Origin: Candidatus Pacearchaeota archaeon
Lineage (GTDB): Archaea; Nanobdellota; Nanobdellia; Pacearchaeales; GW2011-AR1
DNA length: 48,739 nucleotides
Direction of reading: 5' to 3'
NCBI GenBank assembly: GCA_016186365.1
Contig: JACPLT010000015.1
Span: forward strand, 1-48,739
The notes below the pieces were generated by a model, which saw only the letters and a list, made by a program, of their open reading frames with translations, searched no databases and was not told the origin of the DNA. Shown piece after piece: positions 4,251 through 35,856 of this stretch. Position 1 is the stretch's first letter, and every line of letters starts with the position of its first letter. A program made the translations under genes and the position numbers.

Positions 4251-4380
4251 TTCAAAATCTGGGTTAATACCCCCCAGCTTGCTGTGTCAGATTTTGAACC
4301 TTCAAAATCATGGATTTTGAATGGCCATGGAAAAACCTGCGTTTTTCCTTGGAGATAGAAATTGCCCTTAGGCAATTTCT
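4251..4380. repeat. cluster of four consecutive intergenic hairpins
   Basis: ttcaaaatctg (4251-4261) pairs with cagattttgaa (4288-4298). ttcaaaatc/gattttgaa span 4301-4321. ccatggaaaaac/gtttttccttgg span 4325-4352 with one mismatch. agaaattgcc/ggcaatttct span 4357-4380 and abut the stop of the GT2 gene. Confidence 0.7.
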
Positions 4381-5781
4381 TTATTCGTTATATATCATTT
4401 GCAGCAATTCTTTAAGCTTATTTTCTTTTTCTTCTGCTTCTATTCTGCCCCTTACTTTCAATGAAGTTATAAAATGATTGAGTTTTTCTATTTTCTTCTC
4501 TTCTGTTTTAAGCAAAAGTTTTAATCCATCATCAATCGCTTTATACCAAATTTTCTCCCTTTCTTCTCTGCTCTTTATTGTTTCATTGGGATGCATACTA
4601 AACCAGCTTTTCTTTTTTTCAACAACAAATTCTTTATAGCTTAGTTTGGCATAATTAATCGCCTCTTTCATATTCCTCTTATAAATAATAGAAAAAACTG
4701 CGATAATTCTGGAATAACAATAATCTCTTACATTCACTCTATTTCCAGAAGACTTCCCACTTTCGCATATTCTAGAAAATTTAGCTAAGCTAAATTTTCC
4801 GTTAGTTAATTTTAAAAGCCAGTCAATTCCACTAAACCCTCCTAATTTTGCCCCATACACTCCATGAAAAGAAGCGGCTTTTGTTCCAGGAAGATAATAA
4901 AGAGAATAAGCATTTTCTATCAATCTGCAGGCAAATTCTTGTTCCTCTCCTGCTTTATTGGGCCATGTTGCAAATTCCGGAAATCCCCCTACATCCAGAT
5001 ATTTGCTTCTATCAATGATAAAATGCCCCCATGTCTGGTAAACTTTAATAGGAAGAAAAATTTTAAGATTATTATTAAAGAATATATTTTTGTTTAAAAG
5101 ATATTCTTCTGGAATAGAATTAAAACTCGCACTTGCAGTTCCTCTCTTAAAAAAGGTTTTAGTTAAGTCTTCTATTTTAATTGCTTTACTAGGATAAGAC
5201 GCCCGATTATAAACAGGAAGGACTAAAACTGCAAAATTCTTGTCTTTTTCAAGATGTTTTATAACAATATCAGAAATAAATGTGAGATAAGGAGTTGGAA
5301 CGCAGTCATCATCAAGGAAGAATAAATATTTTCCGCCGGCATTTTTAGCCCCTATATTTCTAGAAATTGAACTTCCCTTCCTTTCTGCATTTTTAAAATA
5401 TTTTATTTCTATTCCCTTTGTGCTGTATGCCTCTTTTTTTAATTCTTCTACCACTTCTTTAGTATTATCGTTAGAACAGTCATCTACAACAATTATTTCT
5501 TTTAAAGGAGATTTTTGCAATAACAACGCCTTTACGCAGATATACAAAGGATTATAAAAATAATCAGGGGACTTTTTATCAAAGGGGCACCGATTATAAG
5601 TGGGTATTATTGCACTTATTTCTGAAGGTTTCCCAGAAATTTTGAATTTAGCCAAATACAATGGATTAAAAAAATCTTTTTGAAACTCCTTTTTAAGCTG
5701 TTCTTCACTAATGTCCATGCAATATTTATAGAAAAGCTTTTTAAAAGCCTTGCTATTATTATTAAAATGAACCTGCTTCAC
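4381..5781 (-). CDS. family 2 glycosyltransferase (GT-A fold) with an extended C-terminal region
   Basis: IIPTYNR...IIVVDDCSNDNT...FFLDDDCV are the GT2 signature segments (DxD). The start may instead be the internal Met at 5718, which would avoid overlap with the divergent gene. Confidence 0.8.
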   Translation of the reverse strand: MKQVHFNNNSKAFKKLFYKYCMDISEEQLKKEFQKDFFNPLYLAKFKISGKPSEISAIIPTYNRCPFDKKSPDYFYNPLYICVKALLLQKSPLKEIIVVDDCSNDNTKEVVEELKKEAYSTKGIEIKYFKNAERKGSSISRNIGAKNAGGKYLFFLDDDCVPTPYLTFISDIVIKHLEKDKNFAVLVLPVYNRASYPSKAIKIEDLTKTFFKRGTASASFNSIPEEYLLNKNIFFNNNLKIFLPIKVYQTWGHFIIDRSKYLDVGGFPEFATWPNKAGEEQEFACRLIENAYSLYYLPGTKAASFHGVYGAKLGGFSGIDWLLKLTNGKFSLAKFSRICESGKSSGNRVNVRDYCYSRIIAVFSIIYKRNMKEAINYAKLSYKEFVVEKKKSWFSMHPNETIKSREEREKIWYKAIDDGLKLLLKTEEKKIEKLNHFITSLKVRGRIEAEEKENKLKELLQMIYNE

Positions 5782-14469: not shown

Positions 14470-14594
14470 GCGCTATTAGTTTATCGGTAGAATGAAGCCT
14501 TCCCAATGTAAGGAACCAAGGTTCCTTAACACTCAACCTCCTAAAAATAAAAAGGAAAAAGGCTTAGAGCCGGGTTCAATTCCCGGATGGCGCA
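14470..14594 (+). tRNA. tRNA-Gly(CCC) with a 54-nt intron at 37/38
   Basis: Acceptor GCGCTAT/ATGGCGC (one G-U). D arm GTTT-ATCGGTA-GAAT. Anticodon stem AAGCC/GGCTT with loop TTCCCAA (CCC at 14502-14504). T arm CCGGG-TTCAATT-CCCGG, discriminator A, no encoded CCA. Confidence 0.85.
14506..14559 (+). other. tRNA-Gly intron (canonical position)
   Basis: TTCC (32-35) pairs with GGAA (14554-14557), flanked by 3-nt bulges, giving bulge-helix-bulge geometry. Contains hairpin GGAACCAAGGTTCC. Homologous to the tRNA-Asn intron. Confidence 0.75.
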
Positions 14595-19208: not shown

Positions 19209-19988
19209 TTATCTAAAATACCCCAAAGCTTCTCGAACACTCTCAACTTCAACAATCTTTATTCCAGTTTCCTGCTCGATATTAACTTTTCTCGGAACTG
19301 TTTCATTCACGCAGACTTCATTTCCCCCAAACTGCTGGCAGTGCTCTCTTGATTCATAAACAACATCTGCAGAATTTAATAATGGAACTAAAAATAAATC
19401 TGCCCCTGAATTTTTTGCAGCTTTTGCCTTTTCTAAAATGTCAGAAACAGGCCCTATTGTTCCGTCATGATTGATTGTCCCGGTAATCATAACATTATCT
19501 TTTAAACTCTCGTTATTCAAAGCAAAAATAGTGGCAATAGAAATAGCCGCTCCTGCTGATGGTCCCCCAATTAAGCTTGCATTCGCCTCAACTCTATAAA
19601 CTAAATCATAATCATTTATTTCATTTTTAGAAAGATTTCCAGCAACATATCTTGCCATTCTTATACTCTGTTGAGTATCTGCCCAAAATAGCAGGTTGTC
19701 AATATCTACTAAAGTTTTTCCGCTTCCTTTTGTTGCTTCTACAATAAGCAGGCTGGAAATTCCCTTTCCGTCATAGCTGACAGCCGGCAATTTCATCTTT
19801 ATCAGAGTGGAGTTTTCCCTCGAGAAAAAACCCGGGGTTTTTTCTTTCTCAATAATTTTAGCTTTTTCATTCATGTCCTTAAGAAAACTGAATGAAAGCC
19901 CCTCAAGCAAAACGAACACAATTCCAGTTACAATTATGTATTTCACTAATTTGCTCATTCCCTTTTTTCTCATTATAATTTTATGCAA
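19209..19988 (-). CDS. membrane-anchored Lon-like serine protease (S16 proteolytic domain only)
   Basis: N-terminal TM. GGPSAGAAISIATIFAL (catalytic Ser context) and ITGTINHDGTIGPVSDILEKAKAA (catalytic Lys context) match the Lon C-terminal domain. Confidence 0.8.
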   Translation of the reverse strand: MHKIIMRKKGMSKLVKYIIVTGIVFVLLEGLSFSFLKDMNEKAKIIEKEKTPGFFSRENSTLIKMKLPAVSYDGKGISSLLIVEATKGSGKTLVDIDNLLFWADTQQSIRMARYVAGNLSKNEINDYDLVYRVEANASLIGGPSAGAAISIATIFALNNESLKDNVMITGTINHDGTIGPVSDILEKAKAAKNSGADLFLVPLLNSADVVYESREHCQQFGGNEVCVNETVPRKVNIEQETGIKIVEVESVREALGYFR

Positions 19989-20051
19989 ATTAACATTTAT
20001 ATATCTTTATTAAAAGTTGAACTCGCCCCCACAGATTTCCTAAATAGAGTA

Positions 20052-20065
20052 GAAAGATTTAAATA
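20052..20065 (+). promoter_or_regulatory. BRE/TATA-like promoter element for the RHH-HNH operon
   Basis: GAAAGATTTAAATA ends 22 nt upstream of ATG 20087, implying a leaderless or near-leaderless mRNA. An identical 14-mer lies upstream of tbp. Confidence 0.5.
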
Positions 20066-20086
20066 CATATGTAATATTATATTACT

Positions 20087-20419
20087 ATGGTAAACAAAGA
20101 TAAAAGAGAAGAAAAATCCACAGTTTTTAGTTTTAGGTTACCAAATAATTTGCTTAATGAAATTGATAAAATGGCTAAACAAGAACAGATTGATAGAGCT
20201 TCATGGATAAAACGAGCAATGGTTATAGCAATAGGTGAGCTAAGAGATTCAGCAGTTGAAGGAGCTATCGAAGATTATATTGCTGGAAAAATTGATGACG
20301 ATTTGTTTATCAAAGAAACAGAAAATAAACAAGTTCCACAAGATATTAAAGAAGCTAGAAAGAGGCATATTACCCATTTAGAAGAAAGGCTAACGAATAA
20401 AAGAGTTAAAGGAAAATGA
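20087..20419 (+). CDS. ribbon-helix-helix (CopG/Arc-like) DNA-binding protein
   Basis: TVFSFRLPNNLLNEIDKMAKQEQIDRASWIKRAMVIAI fits the RHH beta-alpha-alpha pattern. ATGA overlap with the next gene. Confidence 0.75.
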   Translation: MVNKDKREEKSTVFSFRLPNNLLNEIDKMAKQEQIDRASWIKRAMVIAIGELRDSAVEGAIEDYIAGKIDDDLFIKETENKQVPQDIKEARKRHITHLEERLTNKRVKGK

Positions 20420-21822
20420 AAAAGTTAATATTTGGCTTGTTTTTAATTATTTCTTTTATTAGTTCAGTTTCTGCTTGCCAATATAAAGTTAATGAAATTT
20501 ATCATGAAGTAGAAATGGGATTATATGACTCTTCTGGAAATTATGTGGGCGAACCTTTAATACTAAGCAATTTTAGTGGAGGATATCAAAATATTGCTGG
20601 ATGTGGACCATTGTCTATAATCATTTCAAATCCTCTTTCTTTTGATATAAACGTTGAGATTAATTTTACTGCAAGACATGATGGAATAATCGGTTGGCCC
20701 CAAGAAGATTATTTAATATCTAGAGCGATTACCATTAAATCGTTTTCATCAGAACAAATCGTGGGGGATTGCCCTTCGGTCGGAGGATCTAGATTATTAG
20801 AAGATTCTATTGAGTATGTAATAACTTCTCCAAAACTACTTATTCCTAAAATGCAAGAAGTAGAAAAGCAAAAAGAGATTTGTAAAATTTGTCCTAATGA
20901 AAAACAATGTTTGGATGATGGTGCTTCTTGTGATTTACCAATAGTATGTGGTTCAAATATCTGTAATCCCGATAATAAATGTGGAACCTTTCAAGGATGT
21001 TCCCAAGGCAAGAAATTATGTAATAACATTTCATGTTTAACTCCTTCAATTAAAAAAACCGAAGAGGCTTACTTATGTGATTGGGAATGTGCTTCTGGAA
21101 CAATAGCTTGTAATGGAATATGCAGGAATGTTTCTTCAAAGAAAATCGGACAGGAGTATTATTGTATTGAAGAATGTAAATCAGGATATGGCAAAGAGAA
21201 TAAATGTATAAGAAATCCCAATGTAGCTAGAAATTTATTAATTCTCTTTATCTCAATTATCCTTTTAATTCTAGGAATAGCATCTTATTTTATTATAGGG
21301 GCTATTAATGAAAAACGTGGAAGAAGGAAAGAGAAAGAGATAATAAAAGAAGCTGAAGAAAAAGCTGAAAAAATAATTAGCTCAGCTAAAAATAAATTAA
21401 AAAGGCTTAATGATGAAATTGAGAAATCTGAAAAATTAAAGACAGAACTTAACTCCCTAAAAAAAGGAAGTATCGAAGCCAGAAAAATAAAAAAAGAATT
21501 GGAAGAAACTAACGAATCAATTCAAAAAGAGAGAATAAGACAAGAAGAAGAAATTAAAAATACTTTGGAAGCATATGAAAAGAGATATAGTCATAGGTTT
21601 GTATTAGATAATAAAGGATATATAAGATTTGCTAAAGGATTTATTAGTGCGGGTATTGGGGGATATTTACATAGGTGGATATATAAGAATGTTCATGGGA
21701 AAATAAACGATGGATATGAAATTCACCATAAGGATTTTAATAAATTTAATAATGAAATAAACAATCTTGAAGAGTTAACTCCTAAAGAGCATCAAAATAA
21801 ACATCTTAATAGGTATAGATAA
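20416..21822 (+). CDS. single-pass membrane protein: lipobox-like signal, Cys-rich ectodomain, TM, coiled coil, C-terminal HNH nuclease
   Basis: Signal MKKLIFGLFLIISFISSVSAC. 20 Cys, most of them in the ~100 residues before TM LLILFISIILLILGIASYFIIGAI, then NEKRGRRKEKE (positive-inside). K/E-rich coiled coil, followed by HNH motif YEIHHKDFNKFNNEINNLEELTPKEHQNKH. Confidence 0.75.
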   Translation: MKKLIFGLFLIISFISSVSACQYKVNEIYHEVEMGLYDSSGNYVGEPLILSNFSGGYQNIAGCGPLSIIISNPLSFDINVEINFTARHDGIIGWPQEDYLISRAITIKSFSSEQIVGDCPSVGGSRLLEDSIEYVITSPKLLIPKMQEVEKQKEICKICPNEKQCLDDGASCDLPIVCGSNICNPDNKCGTFQGCSQGKKLCNNISCLTPSIKKTEEAYLCDWECASGTIACNGICRNVSSKKIGQEYYCIEECKSGYGKENKCIRNPNVARNLLILFISIILLILGIASYFIIGAINEKRGRRKEKEIIKEAEEKAEKIISSAKNKLKRLNDEIEKSEKLKTELNSLKKGSIEARKIKKELEETNESIQKERIRQEEEIKNTLEAYEKRYSHRFVLDNKGYIRFAKGFISAGIGGYLHRWIYKNVHGKINDGYEIHHKDFNKFNNEINNLEELTPKEHQNKHLNRYR

Positions 21823-21824
21823 AT

Positions 21825-22022
21825 ATGAAAATTGAAAAAATATTTGAGATTATTTGGCTAGTTTTCTTAGCAATAGCAATCCCCTCAATTGATGCTTTGG
21901 TAGCCATAGAATTTGGGAAGATTGTAGGAGGGGTTTATGGTTTTTTATTCTTTTTAATAGCGATTATCGCGACTATTGGACCTTGGATTAAAATATATAA
22001 AAAGATAGAAAAATTAAGATAG
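21825..22022 (+). CDS. small two-TM membrane protein
   Basis: 65 aa. Starts 3 nt after the HNH gene stop. Two hydrophobic helices. Confidence 0.45.
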   Translation: MKIEKIFEIIWLVFLAIAIPSIDALVAIEFGKIVGGVYGFLFFLIAIIATIGPWIKIYKKIEKLR

Positions 22023-22182
22023 TTAAACGCCCCCCAAATTCATTCATAAAAATTTTATATTCGCGGTGTAAACTCTCTTGCGGGAGCGTTTAACCAATTT
22101 TAGTATAATTTGGGCTTGTTTTTACACATAAAGTTATGCTAACATTAACCTTAGTAACTTGTCACCGCGAGATTATTAATAT

Positions 22183-22232
22183 CGAGGTTCAAATCCGAGA
22201 TAATGAGTGAGGCTGCGAGGATTTGAACCTCG
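22183..22232. repeat. 14-bp perfect inverted repeat built from a tRNA T-arm sequence
   Basis: cgaggttcaaatcc (22183-22196) is the exact reverse complement of ggatttgaacctcg (22219-22232), which is the T arm of the orphan tRNA half. Confidence 0.8.
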
Positions 22233-22243
22233 GACCCCGGCCT
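22208..22243 (-). tRNA. orphan tRNA 3' half (positions 38-73) preceded by an intron-like leader; no 5' half in cis
   Basis: The minus strand reads A-GGCCG-GGGTC-CGAGG-TTCAAAT-CCTCG-CAGCCTC-A. The leader 22244-22285 contains an exact 22-mer (22262-22283) also found in the tRNA-Asn intron. The required GAGGCTG 5' acceptor is absent before the rpl15e start. Confidence 0.5.
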
Positions 22244-22332
22244 TTCTAATATTTTCTACACAAGGAAGGTAGTGCGGTAGGAAAGAAACAAAGCAAGAAA
22301 AGCTTTAAAAACACCTGTTAACAGAAAATATT

Positions 22333-22953: not shown

Positions 22954-23679
22954 ATGGCTAAAAATAATCCTGAAAAAAACAAGTTAACAAGAGAAAAAAT
23001 AGAAAAACTTCTGATAGATATCGCTATAAAAATAACAAAAGACGGAAAGGGTTGTTTATTTGTCATCAAAGAGAAAGAATTTGAATATGAAACAATGATA
23101 GAACAGGACATCAAGCAGTTCAATGTGATAGACTATCCCAGGAGATTAGAAGCTCTCTCAATAATTGATGGAGCTTGCGTAATTGACATTAATGGAAATC
23201 TTATAGCTTACTCTGCAAAAATAAAGAATACCAAGCCGTTTACAGGATACGGAACAAGGCATGCCGCAGCATATACCTCAAGTTTGAATGGCAACACTTC
23301 TATAATGTCCAGTGAGGAAGATAGAAAAGTAAAAATTTTCAAATCAGGAGTTTTAATAATGCAGATTGACCCCTTTGAAAAAAATATTGAATATAAAACT
23401 AAAGAAGCAGTTAATATTCTAGAAAGCATAGGCATAGGAAGTGTCGCTTCAATTACAGCTTCAACACTCGCTCCAGTATCTTATCTGACTGCATTTGGAA
23501 TATCCGCAGCTGCCCCTGCAGGTCTTGTCCTAATTCCAGGCATAGTTGTTTTTGCAACAACCCACTACATTCTAAAATCACTTCTAAAAAAGAAGTCAGA
23601 AGAAGAAAAAGCACAGCAAAGGACAATATTTGATTTTTTATGGAATATAGGAAGGAAAAAAAATGAAAACAAAGTTTAA
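22954..23679 (+). CDS. diadenylate cyclase (DAC/DisA_N) domain protein with C-terminal TM segments
   Basis: IIDGACVIDINGNL, GYGTRHAAAYTSS and MSSEEDRKVKIF correspond to the DGA, GTRHR/AA and SEE.G motifs of DAC domains. The C-terminus is hydrophobic (APAGLVLIPGIVVFATTHYIL). Confidence 0.7.
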   Translation: MAKNNPEKNKLTREKIEKLLIDIAIKITKDGKGCLFVIKEKEFEYETMIEQDIKQFNVIDYPRRLEALSIIDGACVIDINGNLIAYSAKIKNTKPFTGYGTRHAAAYTSSLNGNTSIMSSEEDRKVKIFKSGVLIMQIDPFEKNIEYKTKEAVNILESIGIGSVASITASTLAPVSYLTAFGISAAAPAGLVLIPGIVVFATTHYILKSLLKKKSEEEKAQQRTIFDFLWNIGRKKNENKV

Positions 23680-27645: not shown

Positions 27646-27758
27646 ATGAAAAAATTTGATAATTTTTACCTCGTTAAATTTCAGGAGAAATTTAAGATGA
27701 AAAAAATGAATGAATTTTTTACCTCGTTAAATTTCAGGAGAAATTTAAGATGAAAAAG
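27646..27758 (+). repeat. tandem duplication (51 + 53 nt units plus a partial third) of the ribosome-binding site and start-codon region
   Basis: The unit ATGAAAAAA...TTTTTACCTCGTTAAATTTCAGGAGAAATTTAAG occurs at 27646-27696 and 27697-27749, with a third ATGAAAAAG at 27750. The 42-mer 27663-27704 equals 27716-27757. Confidence 0.85.
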
Positions 27759-28217
27759 AAAGTGAACCTTGTTATATGGATTGTATTTTTCTTAGCACTA
27801 ACTTCATTTATCTCTTTTGCAGAACAAACCTGCATTCCTGATTGGGAATGCGATTCCTGGGATCCCGAAACTTGTATAGAAGGAGAAGACGACTATCAAT
27901 ACAGAAGCTGTTGGGATAACAATGATTGCGGGACTGATGAAGGTTATCCTAAAGAAGAGAGAGAGTGCAACTTCAATCAGGAAGCTGGAAATTCAACTAA
28001 AATGCTGGCTAATGAATTAGAATTTCTTAAAGAAAAAATGGACTACATCCGCCAGGCGAATTTAACTCCAATAGGAATTGTCATTCTAGCAATAGCGGGA
28101 ATACTAATTATTATAATACTTGCTAATTGGCTGTACAAACAGCTAAAGCCAAAAACAAAAGCAATAATTTATGTCAGCAAATCCGAAGACAAAGAGCAAA
28201 AATACGCCACGAGGTAG
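27750..28217 (+). CDS. secreted Cys-rich protein with C-terminal TM anchor
   Basis: Signal MKKKVNLVIWIVFFLALTSFISFA. CIPDWECDSWDPETCIEGEDDYQYRSCWDNNDCG...EC. TM IGIVILAIAGILIIIILANWLY. Confidence 0.6.
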   Translation: MKKKVNLVIWIVFFLALTSFISFAEQTCIPDWECDSWDPETCIEGEDDYQYRSCWDNNDCGTDEGYPKEERECNFNQEAGNSTKMLANELEFLKEKMDYIRQANLTPIGIVILAIAGILIIIILANWLYKQLKPKTKAIIYVSKSEDKEQKYATR

Positions 28218-35725: not shown

Positions 35726-35856
35726 GTCCCAGTAGCTCAGCAGGTAGAGCAACTGACTGTTAAAGCGCAGGAAACCAAGGTTTCCTACCGCACTACCTTC
35801 CTTAAAGAAGCTAAATTGAAATCAGTGGGTCGTTGGTTCGAGTCCAGCCTGGGACG
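35726..35856 (+). tRNA. tRNA-Asn(GUU) with a 58-nt intron at 37/38
   Basis: Acceptor GTCCCAG/CTGGGAC. D arm GCTC-AGCAGGTA-GAGC. Anticodon stem ACTGA/TCAGT with loop CTGTTAA (GTT at 35759-35761). Variable loop GGGTC, T arm GTTGG-TTCGAGT-CCAGC, discriminator G. TATA-like GCTTTAAAAAT lies about 25-30 nt upstream. Confidence 0.9.
35763..35820 (+). other. tRNA-Asn intron
   Basis: Contains hairpin GGAAACCAAGGTTTCC followed by TACCGCACTACCTTCCTT. The 22-mer at 35782-35803 recurs at 22262-22283 on the opposite strand. Confidence 0.8.

Follow-up and report, generated by a model that had tools for sequence, protein, structure and literature searches.

Within the window, i.e. the whole 48,739-nucleotide stretch of the Candidatus Pacearchaeota archaeon contig JACPLT010000015.1 that was analysed, positions 20024-22158 constitute a discrete small mobile cassette. 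The central gene of the cassette encodes a 468-residue protein comprising, in order, a signal peptide, an Ig-like β-sandwich, a Cys-rich stalk, one transmembrane (TM) helix, a charged helix and an HNH_3 nuclease domain, and represents a large, previously undescribed, DPANN-specific protein family. The best explanation for the cassette as a whole, and the most likely function, albeit one held tentatively, is that of a nuclease that is coupled to the cell surface and serves in conflict or defence.

Organization and boundaries of the cassette

The + strand of the window carries three coupled genes, encoding a ribbon-helix-helix (RHH) protein, the 468-residue protein and a 65-residue two-helix membrane protein. 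The initial annotation had described these as translationally coupled, and the sequence bears this out, with an ATGA overlap (20416-20419) between the RHH and 468-residue protein genes and a 2-nt gap (21823-21824) between the latter and the third gene. The features of the region are as follows.

20016..20030, + strand: left boundary motif in degenerate form, GTTGAACTCGCCCCC, for which relatives have GTTAAACGCCCCC
20058..20065, + strand: TATA-box-like TTTAAATA, 22 nt 5' of the RHH start codon
20087-20419, + strand: RHH open reading frame (ORF), 110 aa, CopG-like
20416-21822, + strand: receptor-like HNH ORF, 468 aa
21825-22022, + strand: small membrane protein ORF, 65 aa, two-TM, lineage-specific
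22022..22158, + strand: non-coding right-end element, starting with GTTAAACGCCCCC (22022-22034) and with an inverted partner at 22082-22094
22209..22244, - strand: tRNA 3'-half-like sequence, with the pattern of a T arm and acceptor strand

The TATA-box-like element TTTAAATA is probably a leaderless-type promoter, and the block AGAAAGATTTAAATACATATGTAATATTATATTAC in the promoter region is near-invariant in the window and in four of the loci compared with it (L012, L013, L014 and L016). Similarity of the window to L012, L013 and L126 begins at 20024, and the upstream neighbours differ. Exact copies of GTTAAACGCCCCC flank the module in L013, L017 and L012, the last of which has two cassettes in a row with this motif at their boundaries; two copies of the boundary motif are present versus 0.2 expected. 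The right-end element is 76-90% identical in L013, L017/L006 and L124, despite the different cassettes and flanks at these loci; it has no Rfam match and a fold z-score of just -1.36. The L013 copy of this element lies directly next to a genuine tRNA, and a third copy of GTTAAACGCCCCC forms the junction with the tRNA 3' end. The tRNA 3'-half-like sequence in the window, in which neither ARAGORN nor Rfam detects a full tRNA, represents either the remains of an integration site or a tRNA that is split or unusual.

The cassette is found again in other genomic settings, often next to tRNA genes and with flanking genes that vary by locus, and it is single-copy and patchily distributed. In L001, for example, the family gene lies ~55 nt downstream of the orthologue of the window tRNA at 35726-35856, a position occupied in the window by an EamA transporter gene. 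Free-standing HNH genes also adjoin family members in L001, where an HNH ORF is found inside a tRNA intron. A survey of neighbourhoods for defence-island enrichment, as had been suggested with the initial annotation, revealed housekeeping genes with scattered VapBC, ParE and PIN toxin-antitoxin pairs and no defence islands.

Integron cassettes and CALINs occur in Archaea, including Nanoarchaeota and Aenigmatarchaeota, and the archaeal cassettes are enriched in genes for toxin-antitoxin, restriction-type and signal-peptide proteins (PMC9668308). As in integrons, the modules described here are discrete cassettes parted by a repeated, imperfectly palindromic site; unlike in integrons, the core sites (GTTAAAC...GTTTAAC) are the reverse of the canonical RYYYAAC...GTTRRRY and the repeats resemble copies of a tRNA 3'-end junction. 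An attC reading of the boundary was rejected on the basis of the reversed core-site order, the weakness of the hairpin and the lack of an integrase among 18 window ORFs (ten of 342-461 aa and eight flanking the module), and is kept only as a lead. Matches to the boundary motif in viral contigs, of which there were 15, are unrelated, have 42-66% GC and are at chance level.

Domain architecture of the 468-residue protein

The architecture first proposed for the 468-residue protein, i.e. a Cys-rich ectodomain, a single TM helix, a K/E-rich helix and a C-terminal HNH domain, holds, and its elements can be delimited as follows.

20416..20475, + strand: signal peptide, aa 1-20 (MKK, h-region, VSA), conserved in the family
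20476..20886, + strand: extracellular Ig-like β-sandwich, aa 21-157, the most variable domain (AF2 pLDDT ~85-95)
20887..21219, + strand: extracellular Cys-rich stalk, aa 158-268, with 16 Cys and lower AF2 confidence
21235..21306, + strand: single TM helix by hydropathy, aa 274-297 (~L274-I297), with NEKRGRRKEKE coming next
21307..21591, + strand: charged helical linker, aa 298-392, a coiled coil or single α-helix
21592..21822, + strand: HNH_3 nuclease domain, predicted cytoplasmic, aa 393-468 plus the stop codon

The signal sequence, which reads MKK followed by a hydrophobic stretch and VSA, with Cys immediately after, had been taken as lipobox-like. When compared with the pattern [LVI][ASTVI][GAS]C, the window has VSAC and most homologues have V-x-A-(2-4 residues)-C-Q-Y, e.g. 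VYA-LD-CQY, so that a lipobox does not appear to be conserved; because most homologues insert 2-4 residues between the Ala and the conserved Cys, the region looks more like a signal-peptidase-I site followed by the conserved first Cys of the mature domain.

The Ig-like domain is 18-46% identical to those of relatives. Foldseek comparison of the full-length and ectodomain models with the PDB gave only generic Ig, FnIII, ApaG and arrestin matches (E ~5e-3), and therefore no ligand can be proposed from the fold. Sequence searches of the PDB with the whole protein and with the ectodomain profile gave no match, a Pfam scan of 12 ectodomains returned no family, and the Cys-rich stalk has no relative in Pfam or the PDB. 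In the family alignment C172, C178, C183, C189, C195 and C264 of the stalk are invariant. The protein has the 20 ectodomain cysteines initially reported, every one of them N-terminal to residue 265, so that the part beyond the TM helix has none; 17 are clustered in residues 156-264, the seventeenth, C156, belonging to the final strand of the Ig-like domain.

The AF2 model has one unbroken helix over residues 276-391. The linker (residues 298-392) is 52% K/E/R, and in its best heptad register 52% of the a/d positions are hydrophobic, versus 16% elsewhere. Across the family the distance between the TM helix and the HNH domain ranges from 4 to 297 residues, a variability more in keeping with a tether than with a tuned signalling helix, and one that argues against a conserved allosteric relay.

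A further protein in the window (27750-28217, 155 aa) had been cited as showing that the ectodomain style recurs; it does have the same style (a signal, 8 Cys and a TM helix), but it does not have the same domain, being unrelated by the ectodomain profile (E>1).

Distribution and evolution of the family

A search with the ectodomain profile identified 321 cluster representatives, 157 of them at E<=1e-30, and the full layout (signal, ectodomain, TM helix, linker and HNH domain) is present in at least 122 of the 157, all of which were examined. Full-length relatives occur only in DPANN genomes, i.e. in Nanoarchaeota, Woesearchaeota, Aenigmatarchaeota and Micrarchaeota metagenome-assembled genomes; the viral contigs searched contain no full-length member. 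The initial view that the architecture lies outside described systems is borne out, in that no PADLOC model, Pfam ectodomain family or paper fits it: a literature search found no description of the family or its architecture, and PADLOC-DB v2 matched the 468-residue protein only with general homing-endonuclease models (E=5e-5) and, as noise from coiled coils, with LmuB, ZorB and JetC, and gave nothing for the RHH and 65-residue proteins.

The cassette has evolved as a mosaic. Between the window protein and its closest relative (P0001 versus P0002), identity is 96% in the HNH domain and 81% in the linker, and falls to 42% in the Ig-like and 52% in the Cys-rich domain. At the DNA level identity is 90% over 21272-22158 and only ~70%, in patches, across the ectodomain; the 87% identity to L012-14 covers only the promoter, the RHH gene and the signal peptide, and then collapses. 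By these comparisons the ectodomain is the fast-evolving part of the protein, and its divergence may be the signature of an arms race.

The HNH domain and its predicted location

The Pfam model HNH_3 (PF13392) matches residues 417-460 with E=1.7e-12 and 47.2 bits (cut-off 24.8), and PHROG HNH families match the domain down to 9e-12. Residues 395-465, modelled by AF2 at pLDDT ~90, adopt a ββα fold, which superposes on phage HNH endonucleases with rmsd values of 1.4-4 Å over ~70 residues. In 122 homologues with the full layout, diverged below 50% identity, H438 and N450 are retained in 122/122, H459 in 120/122, H437 in 119/122, and D440, as D or N, in 122/122; the degeneration of HNH residues in homologues that had been raised as an objection is not seen. 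The HNH_3 domain is thus predicted to be catalytically intact, and nuclease activity is probable.

Phage and free-standing HNH_3 homing endonucleases are soluble, carry AP2, NUMOD or IENR modules and reside in phage genomes or introns. The 468-residue protein shares the catalytic core of I-HmuI-type enzymes (ββα-Me nickases), including the conserved His/Asn/His, and differs from them in having a signal peptide, a ~250-aa ectodomain, a TM helix and a ~95-aa helical tether; its gene is archaeal and chromosomal, and it has no recognisable DNA-binding module beside the HNH domain. Assignment to the homing endonuclease class was rejected, since the protein is a membrane protein with no AP2, NUMOD or IENR match and no full-length relatives in viral contigs. 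The same evidence bears on the proposal that a phage-type HNH_3 gene was fused by chance to a surface-protein gene as a selfish passenger, with no joint function. Viral/phage HNH_3 copies share up to 58% identity with the HNH core over ~46 residues, and the free-standing and intronic HNH genes of L001 would also be in keeping with such an origin. However, at least 122 diverged members, drawn from several phyla of DPANN, have kept the fusion, the HNH domain invariably coming behind a TM helix and a helical linker, and an intron or intein context is likewise lacking. A passenger would, moreover, be expected to show frequent HNH decay, against which the near-invariant catalytic residues argue, making this proposal highly improbable.

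A type I, single-pass topology, with the N terminus outside and the C terminus inside, is predicted from four proxies: the asymmetry of Cys residues, the positive-inside rule, glycosylation sequons and fusions to DnaJ. Over 113 members the median number of Cys is 18 outside versus ~0.5 inside, K+R counts are 4.9 after versus 3.2 before the TM helix, and N-X-S/T occurs at 1.36x expectation outside versus 0.95x inside; counted separately, a C-terminal DnaJ domain follows the HNH domain in three members. Every computed proxy thus places the HNH domain inside the cell, and not outside, as had been considered. Hydropathy also supports the type I layout, with a cleavable signal and one internal TM helix.

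An external sensor, one helix and an internal DNA-binding domain also make up the topology of one-component membrane regulators such as ToxR and CadC, which pair an outer or periplasmic sensor and one TM helix with a cytoplasmic nucleic-acid-binding domain. The protein could, by such logic, be a membrane-tethered regulator or chromosome anchor, its HNH fold serving as a non-cutting DNA-binding finger, and in some ectodomain relatives (P0098, P0110 and P0162) a cytoplasmic zinc ribbon does replace the HNH domain. Unlike in ToxR/CadC, though, the output domain is an HNH and not a winged helix, the sensor is N-terminal with a cleavable signal, giving a reversed polarity, and the locus is mobile and hypervariable, occurring in varying contexts without a fixed regulon. 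Retention of the general-base His and the metal-site Asn and His in 120-122 of the 122 members also points to selection for catalysis, and a regulatory role is very unlikely.

Alternatively, the ectodomain may be a host adhesin and the membrane-near nuclease may process incoming host DNA for salvage or gene uptake. Confinement of the family to host-dependent DPANN lineages, a hypervariable ectodomain, as expected of partner-specific adhesion, the predicted location of the nuclease at the inner membrane face, and a tether of variable length, which fits positioning rather than signalling, are all consistent with a role in symbiosis or DNA acquisition. Such a role is nevertheless distinctly unlikely, as transporter, pilus or DNA-translocase genes are linked in no locus, a mobile, patchy, single-copy cassette is unlike a core symbiosis function, and the RHH family also serves stand-alone nucleases (see below), which points to conflict systems.

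The RHH protein and the 65-residue protein

The 110-residue protein has an RHH region at about residues 12-50, followed by a family-specific C-terminal helical extension with the motif AIEDYI..(K/R)ID...(I/V)P.DI.EARK. The window protein itself is sub-threshold against PF01402 (16.1 versus 20.5 bits), with sub-threshold RHH matches at the same residues in Pfam, NCBIfam and PHROGs; 9 of 10 relatives match RHH_1 (best 6.8e-7), and the family profile matches the CopG structures 6xrw and 1b01 with E 0.001-0.002 over residues 4-50. On these profile matches the protein is a member of the RHH/CopG superfamily (PF01402).

Among the 18 loci with readable upstream sequence, the RHH gene is directly upstream of the family gene in 7 independent loci, usually with an ATGA overlap (as in the window, L013, L004, L025 and L124), and is absent in ~11. 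Some homologues are thus linked to RHH genes, the reverse of what had been put forward as grounds for doubt, and the partnership of the RHH protein is dedicated yet optional; its absence from the ~11 loci implies that, in general, the nuclease can do without an antitoxin. The same RHH family precedes a 68-aa stand-alone HNH_3 protein in L015 and a DUF559 endonuclease-TM-ectodomain protein in L016, and so tracks nucleases. The L016 protein, too, spans the membrane once and is predicted to have its nuclease in the cytoplasm. Its C-terminal ectodomain was considered as a further copy of the Ig-like domain and was not accepted as homologous (hhalign probability 5% over 22 columns); the architecture is analogous only.

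These data bear on whether the module is an addiction cassette, in which the HNH protein would be a membrane-tethered toxin and the RHH protein a labile antitoxin and autorepressor, together stabilising the cassette or its region, with the ectodomain secondary. The layout is the classic one of type II toxin-antitoxin systems with CopG/ParD/BrnA-like RHH antitoxins, in that a small upstream RHH gene is coupled by ATGA, the RHH protein combines an N-terminal DNA-binding fold with a conserved C-terminal tail, one RHH family is paired with different nucleases, as in modular toxin swapping, and the location is mobile and among other toxin-antitoxin pairs. Adjacency and coupling are thus as in type II systems; co-occurrence is not obligate, however, the RHH gene being missing from most family loci, which is hard to square with an obligatory antitoxin. 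Type II toxins known so far are small soluble proteins, whereas the 'toxin' here would be a 468-aa receptor-like membrane protein, which matched none of the known toxin families, and the ~270-aa, conserved yet diversifying, disulfide-rich ectodomain would be left unexplained. Addiction is, on balance, an unlikely primary role.

Relative to L017, the gene for the 65-residue protein has 10 codons with synonymous and 5 with non-synonymous substitutions, none of them at a second position. The protein has no homologue outside its own 90% cluster, and the small downstream TM ORFs at other loci are not detectably homologous to it; a general linkage of such a gene to the family is not supported.

Proposed function and implications

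The ligand, activation and role that we infer for the 468-residue protein, as a surface-coupled conflict or defence nuclease, are as follows. The fast-evolving extracellular Ig-like domain, on its disulfide-rich stalk, would engage a virus, a partner or a competitor cell. The HNH_3 domain, apparently borrowed from phage-type homing endonucleases, would sit in the cytoplasm just beneath the membrane, and the tethered nuclease would cut DNA at the site of engagement, either through engagement-driven clustering and activation or simply through being placed where foreign DNA enters. The dedicated RHH partner is probably the repressor of the operon; through its conserved C-terminal tail it may also restrain the nuclease, much as an antitoxin would.

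Zorya, in which ZorAB has a long cytoplasmic tail and ZorC/D is the nuclease, is an envelope-triggered anti-phage system, as is Kiwa (cf. PMC11890865). It may be that the logic is shared, with a membrane part perceiving an envelope event and a long helix leading to a DNA-targeting activity; by contrast with these multi-protein, motor-based assemblies, a single archaeal polypeptide here combines ectodomain, TM helix and nuclease. Homology to these systems is lacking, the PADLOC ZorB match (E=0.016) being coiled-coil noise.

In its strongest form, which is doubtful, the proposal is of a true transmembrane receptor-nuclease, in which binding of a virus or foreign cell surface by the hypervariable Ig-like ectodomain would cluster or re-register the helical stalks and so switch on the HNH domain, with the RHH protein as a safety catch. 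DPANN archaea would then have, on cassettes that target tRNA genes, an immunity in which one polypeptide is triggered at the surface and destroys DNA. If correct, this would be a signalling-to-nuclease architecture without a described counterpart in any domain of life.

The DPANN archaea are tiny, host-dependent cells. To our knowledge, hardly anything is known of their surface biology and antiviral defences, and recognisable defence systems are few among them. If its members do act as surface-coupled nucleases of conflict or defence, the family described here, with at least 300 clusters pairing a rapidly diversifying surface domain with a conserved nuclease, would be a testable candidate for the policing of DNA at the envelope, which DPANN cells could direct against viruses or exercise at host contact. 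It would also represent the domestication of a phage homing-endonuclease domain within the scaffold of a membrane receptor. In addition, it brings to light a system of small cassettes, with tRNA-end-like repeats at their borders, by which genes for surface proteins move from one DPANN genome to another.

An operon centred on a putative receptor-nuclease

On sequence grounds, the best-supported reading of the 468-aa protein is a conflict/defence nuclease that would be coupled to the cell surface. The tight coupling of its gene to both neighbours, proposed in the initial annotation, was confirmed, with an ATGA overlap between the first and second reading frames and 2 nt between the second and third.

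20087-20419 (+), RHH protein, 110 aa
20416-21822 (+), receptor-like HNH protein, 468 aa
21825-22022 (+), small membrane protein, 65 aa

The operon lies in an AT-rich archaeal chromosome of ordinary character (31% GC in the window), the gene content of which includes L15e, FtsZ, TGT, a GatA-like amidase, MFS transporters and intron-bearing tRNAs; within the window there is one copy only of the 468-aa protein. Its N terminus comprises MKK, a hydrophobic core and VSA/C, and the proposed Cys-rich ectodomain is borne out, all 20 Cys being N-terminal of residue 265 and 17 of them within residues 156-264. The single internal hydrophobic helix (about L274-I297) is followed by NEKRGRRKEKE, and K, E and R make up 52% of residues 298-392. 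The C-terminal HNH motif corresponds to a Pfam HNH_3 match at residues 417-460 (E=1.7e-12).

An AlphaFold2 model, run on the family alignment (mean pLDDT 77.5), has a confident β-sandwich at residues 23-157 (pLDDT about 85-95), a Cys-rich region of lower confidence, a continuous helix without a break at residues 276-391, and a confident HNH domain at residues 395-465. Structural matches to the sandwich are to generic Ig, FnIII, ApaG and arrestin-type folds only (E about 5e-3); the HNH model overlays phage HNH endonucleases with rmsd 1.4-4 Å over about 70 residues, at 25-35% identity.

Family range, topology and nuclease conservation

A word-indexed search returned just 14 relatives, one named 'HNH endonuclease [Nanoarchaeota archaeon]', and an ectodomain-only profile searched against 1.84 billion representatives matched 321 proteins at E<=1e-3, of which 288 reach E<=1e-10 and 157 reach E<=1e-30. 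Of the 157 members inspected, at least 122 have the HNH domain by our own HMM, and a few others give weak Pfam HNH_3 matches. In nearly all of these a signal peptide leads into the ectodomain, after which come a single TM helix, a helical linker and the HNH domain; members without HNH are mostly short proteins, terminating directly past the TM helix. Variants include three members with a DnaJ domain C-terminal of HNH (P0089, P0147 and P0160), proteins with tandem ectodomains (P0105 and P0120), and HNH-less proteins in which a cytoplasmic zinc ribbon at the N terminus precedes a TM helix, the ectodomain and a further TM helix (P0098, P0110 and P0162). Full-length relatives come only from MAGs (species-representative genomes) of Nanoarchaeota, Woesearchaeota, Nanoarchaeia, Aenigmatarchaeota and Micrarchaeota, except for two matches on contigs binned as Methanosarcinales, a placement we guess to be misbinning; bacterial and phage matches are restricted to the HNH core. 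The ectodomains of 12 members scanned against Pfam matched no family, and a PDB sequence search found no relative.

The proposal that the HNH domain is cytoplasmic was judged by four independent proxies, all of which agree with it, three being computed over 113 members. The median number of Cys is 18 in the ectodomain (range 10-42; even in 87/113 members) versus about 0.5 in the C-terminal half; over the 15 residues past the TM helix K+R is 4.9, versus 3.2 ahead of it, and is greater past the helix in 85 members; and N-X-S/T sequons occur at 1.36 times expectation in the ectodomain and 0.95 times in the C-terminal half. As the fourth we counted the DnaJ fusions, since DnaJ requires cytoplasmic Hsp70. 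A host-contact or DNA-scavenging device is second in weight among the rival explanations.

The HNH motif is not degenerate in homologues. Among 122 members, each representing a 50%-identity cluster, H438, N450 and L451 are invariant, H459 and H437 are conserved in 120 and 119, respectively, and position 440 is D in 110 and N in 12. Such near-invariance argues for selection for catalysis; a membrane-tethered, ToxR-like DNA binder is the third-placed rival. The HNH domain was probably recruited from the phage HNH_3 homing endonuclease pool, because core identity to these enzymes reaches 58%; a selfish fusion is given the least weight of the four rivals.

The RHH and small membrane partners

Profile matches identify the 110-aa protein as an RHH protein. 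The same residues give sub-threshold matches in Pfam, NCBIfam (aCcr1, BrnA) and PHROGs (CopG-like repressor), RHH_1 is matched by 9/10 of its relatives (best 6.8e-7), and the family profile matches CopG structures; the C-terminal tail, AIEDYI..RID...IP.DI.EARK, is peculiar to this RHH family. The proposed linkage holds in part: an RHH homologue is immediately upstream of the family gene in seven distinct loci (the window, L012-14, L004/L127, L025, L017/L123, L124 and L126), most with the ATGA overlap, and is absent from about 11 others. All RHH relatives that could be placed precede a nuclease gene, i.e. an 85% identical family member (P0017), a stand-alone 68-aa HNH_3 protein (P0021), or a 263-aa DUF559/MTES_1575 endonuclease-TM-β-rich protein (P0019, 79% identical). 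The last pairing is at locus L016 (447-1735), where the RHH gene, its product 79% identical to that of the window, is coupled to the 263-aa protein gene, with a 59-aa TM protein next. The 263-aa protein opens with the DUF559/MTES_1575 endonuclease and ends in a β-rich domain with 2 Cys, a single TM helix lying between them; the theme recurs here with a different nuclease fold and reversed domain order, the β domain outside and the nuclease inside. Similarity of this outer domain to the family ectodomain was not significant, and homology is not claimed. The weightiest rival explanation is a TA-like addiction cassette.

The 65-aa gene looks real: compared with L017, codon changes are 10 synonymous and 5 non-synonymous, with second positions unchanged. 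Small TM ORFs occupy the equivalent place in six family loci and L016, with no detectable relationship to it; the 65-aa protein has no homologues outside its own cluster.

Neighbourhoods and a mosaic cassette

No defence island was recognisable in family neighbourhoods, surveyed as the initial annotation advised, and PADLOC found no defence system. Housekeeping genes near family loci include those for DNA polymerase B, Topo VI, eIF-1A, RtcB and CDC48, with scattered VapBC, ParE and PIN pairs; other neighbours encode Bro-N proteins (L010, L021), a LAGLIDADG protein (L008) and extra HNH proteins (L001). Bro-N domain proteins are virus-associated and DNA-binding, and adjoin family members in two unrelated loci (L010, 3028-3867; L021, 5369-6214). 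In L001 the family gene is followed by a stand-alone 141-aa HNH_3 protein, then a 3-TM protein. Within the window the cassette is flanked on the left by a TM-anchored protein with a Lon_C-only protease domain (19209-19988, -) and on the right by a diadenylate-cyclase (DAC) domain protein with a hydrophobic C-terminal segment (22954-23679, +). The 155-aa protein at 27750-28217, cited as a recurrence of the ectodomain style, shares the layout (signal peptide, 8 Cys within about 60 residues, linker, one TM helix, short tail) and is unrelated to the family (E>1).

Identity of the 468-aa protein to its closest relative, P0002, is 96% in the HNH domain, 81% in the linker, 52% in the Cys-rich stalk and 42% in the Ig-like sandwich. 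DNA of L017 is 90% identical to the window across 21272-22158, with the ectodomain at about 70% in patches only. L012-14 are 87% identical across 20024-20514 (promoter, RHH, signal peptide) and unrelated beyond, except for one 70% patch in the Cys-rich region (20869-20967); in L013, similarity returns at 82% across 22021-22151. We conclude that the ectodomain is exchanged or diversified more quickly than the remaining cassette.

With all of these loci, similarity extends leftwards to 20024 and rightwards to 22151-22158 and no further. The adjoining genes differ, being a Lon-like protease and L15e in the window, a 458-aa membrane protein and CDC48 in L017, and another cassette in L012. The motif GTTAAACGCCCCC occurs at both module ends in L013, L017 and L012, and at the right end in the window and L124, with a degenerate left-end copy in the window; a third copy in L013 forms a junction to a tRNA 3' end. 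In L001, from a genome whose FtsZ is 79% identical to that of the window, the family gene lies about 55 nt past the orthologue of the window tRNA at 35726-35856, a slot held in the window by an EamA transporter. From these shared limits, differing neighbours, GTTAAACGCCCCC ends and tRNA junctions, we conclude that 20024-22158 is a discrete cassette, moving or recombining between genomes with a preference for the vicinity of tRNA genes. The second cassette in L012 (1301-2924), also flanked by GTTAAACGCCCCC, carries genes for a Cys-rich secreted protein of 162 aa and a multi-TM protein of 288 aa, both lacking Pfam matches, and suggests an array of surface-protein cassettes.

Non-coding features at the right end are:

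22022-22158, conserved element of roughly 137 nt, its first base the last of the 65-aa gene stop codon
22082-22094, inverted partner of GTTAAACGCCCCC, both within this element
22183-22207 (+), second, degenerate T-arm-like stretch
22209-22244 (-), tRNA 3'-half-like sequence, T arm CGAGGTTCAAATCCTCG plus acceptor strand

The element shares 76-90% identity with its counterparts in L013, L017/L006 and L124, lacks an Rfam match and is predicted to fold weakly (z -1.36); it could serve as a recombination site or an RHH operator, or encode a small RNA. No 5' half was detectable for the tRNA-like sequence, which may have been left behind by integration or belong to a split or unusual tRNA of the sort known in Nanoarchaeota. 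Rfam identified two tRNAs only in the 48.7 kb (14470-14594 and 35726-35856), their lengths of 125-131 nt implying introns; ARAGORN found none. The L001 orthologue of the latter (4349-4945) is seemingly interrupted by an insert of about 510 nt, a candidate tRNA intron with a homing endonuclease since it encodes a 112-aa HNH protein of the classic zinc-finger type (4408-4746).

A possible new class of receptor-nuclease

As a conflict nuclease coupled to the surface, the 468-aa protein would present a diversifying binder outside the cell and keep a conserved nuclease beneath the membrane by a helical tether, with the dedicated RHH protein as repressor and possibly also inhibitor. The tether between TM helix and HNH varies from 4 to 297 residues across the family, and the heptad signal in the 468-aa protein linker is moderate only, so a nuclease that is clustered or positioned where engagement occurs is slightly favoured over a precise allosteric relay.

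The components, i.e. RHH, the HNH_3 domain, the Ig-like sandwich and tRNA-associated cassettes, are known. As the initial annotation supposed, the combination, a single polypeptide joining an extracellular domain through one TM helix to a cytoplasmic HNH, is absent from PADLOC, Pfam and the searched literature. We file the cassette as a variant, itself new, of nuclease-based conflict or TA-like cassettes. The single-polypeptide combination appears to be kept in at least 300 clusters, in DPANN archaea only, and there is a substantial chance that the family is a new kind of transmembrane receptor-nuclease.
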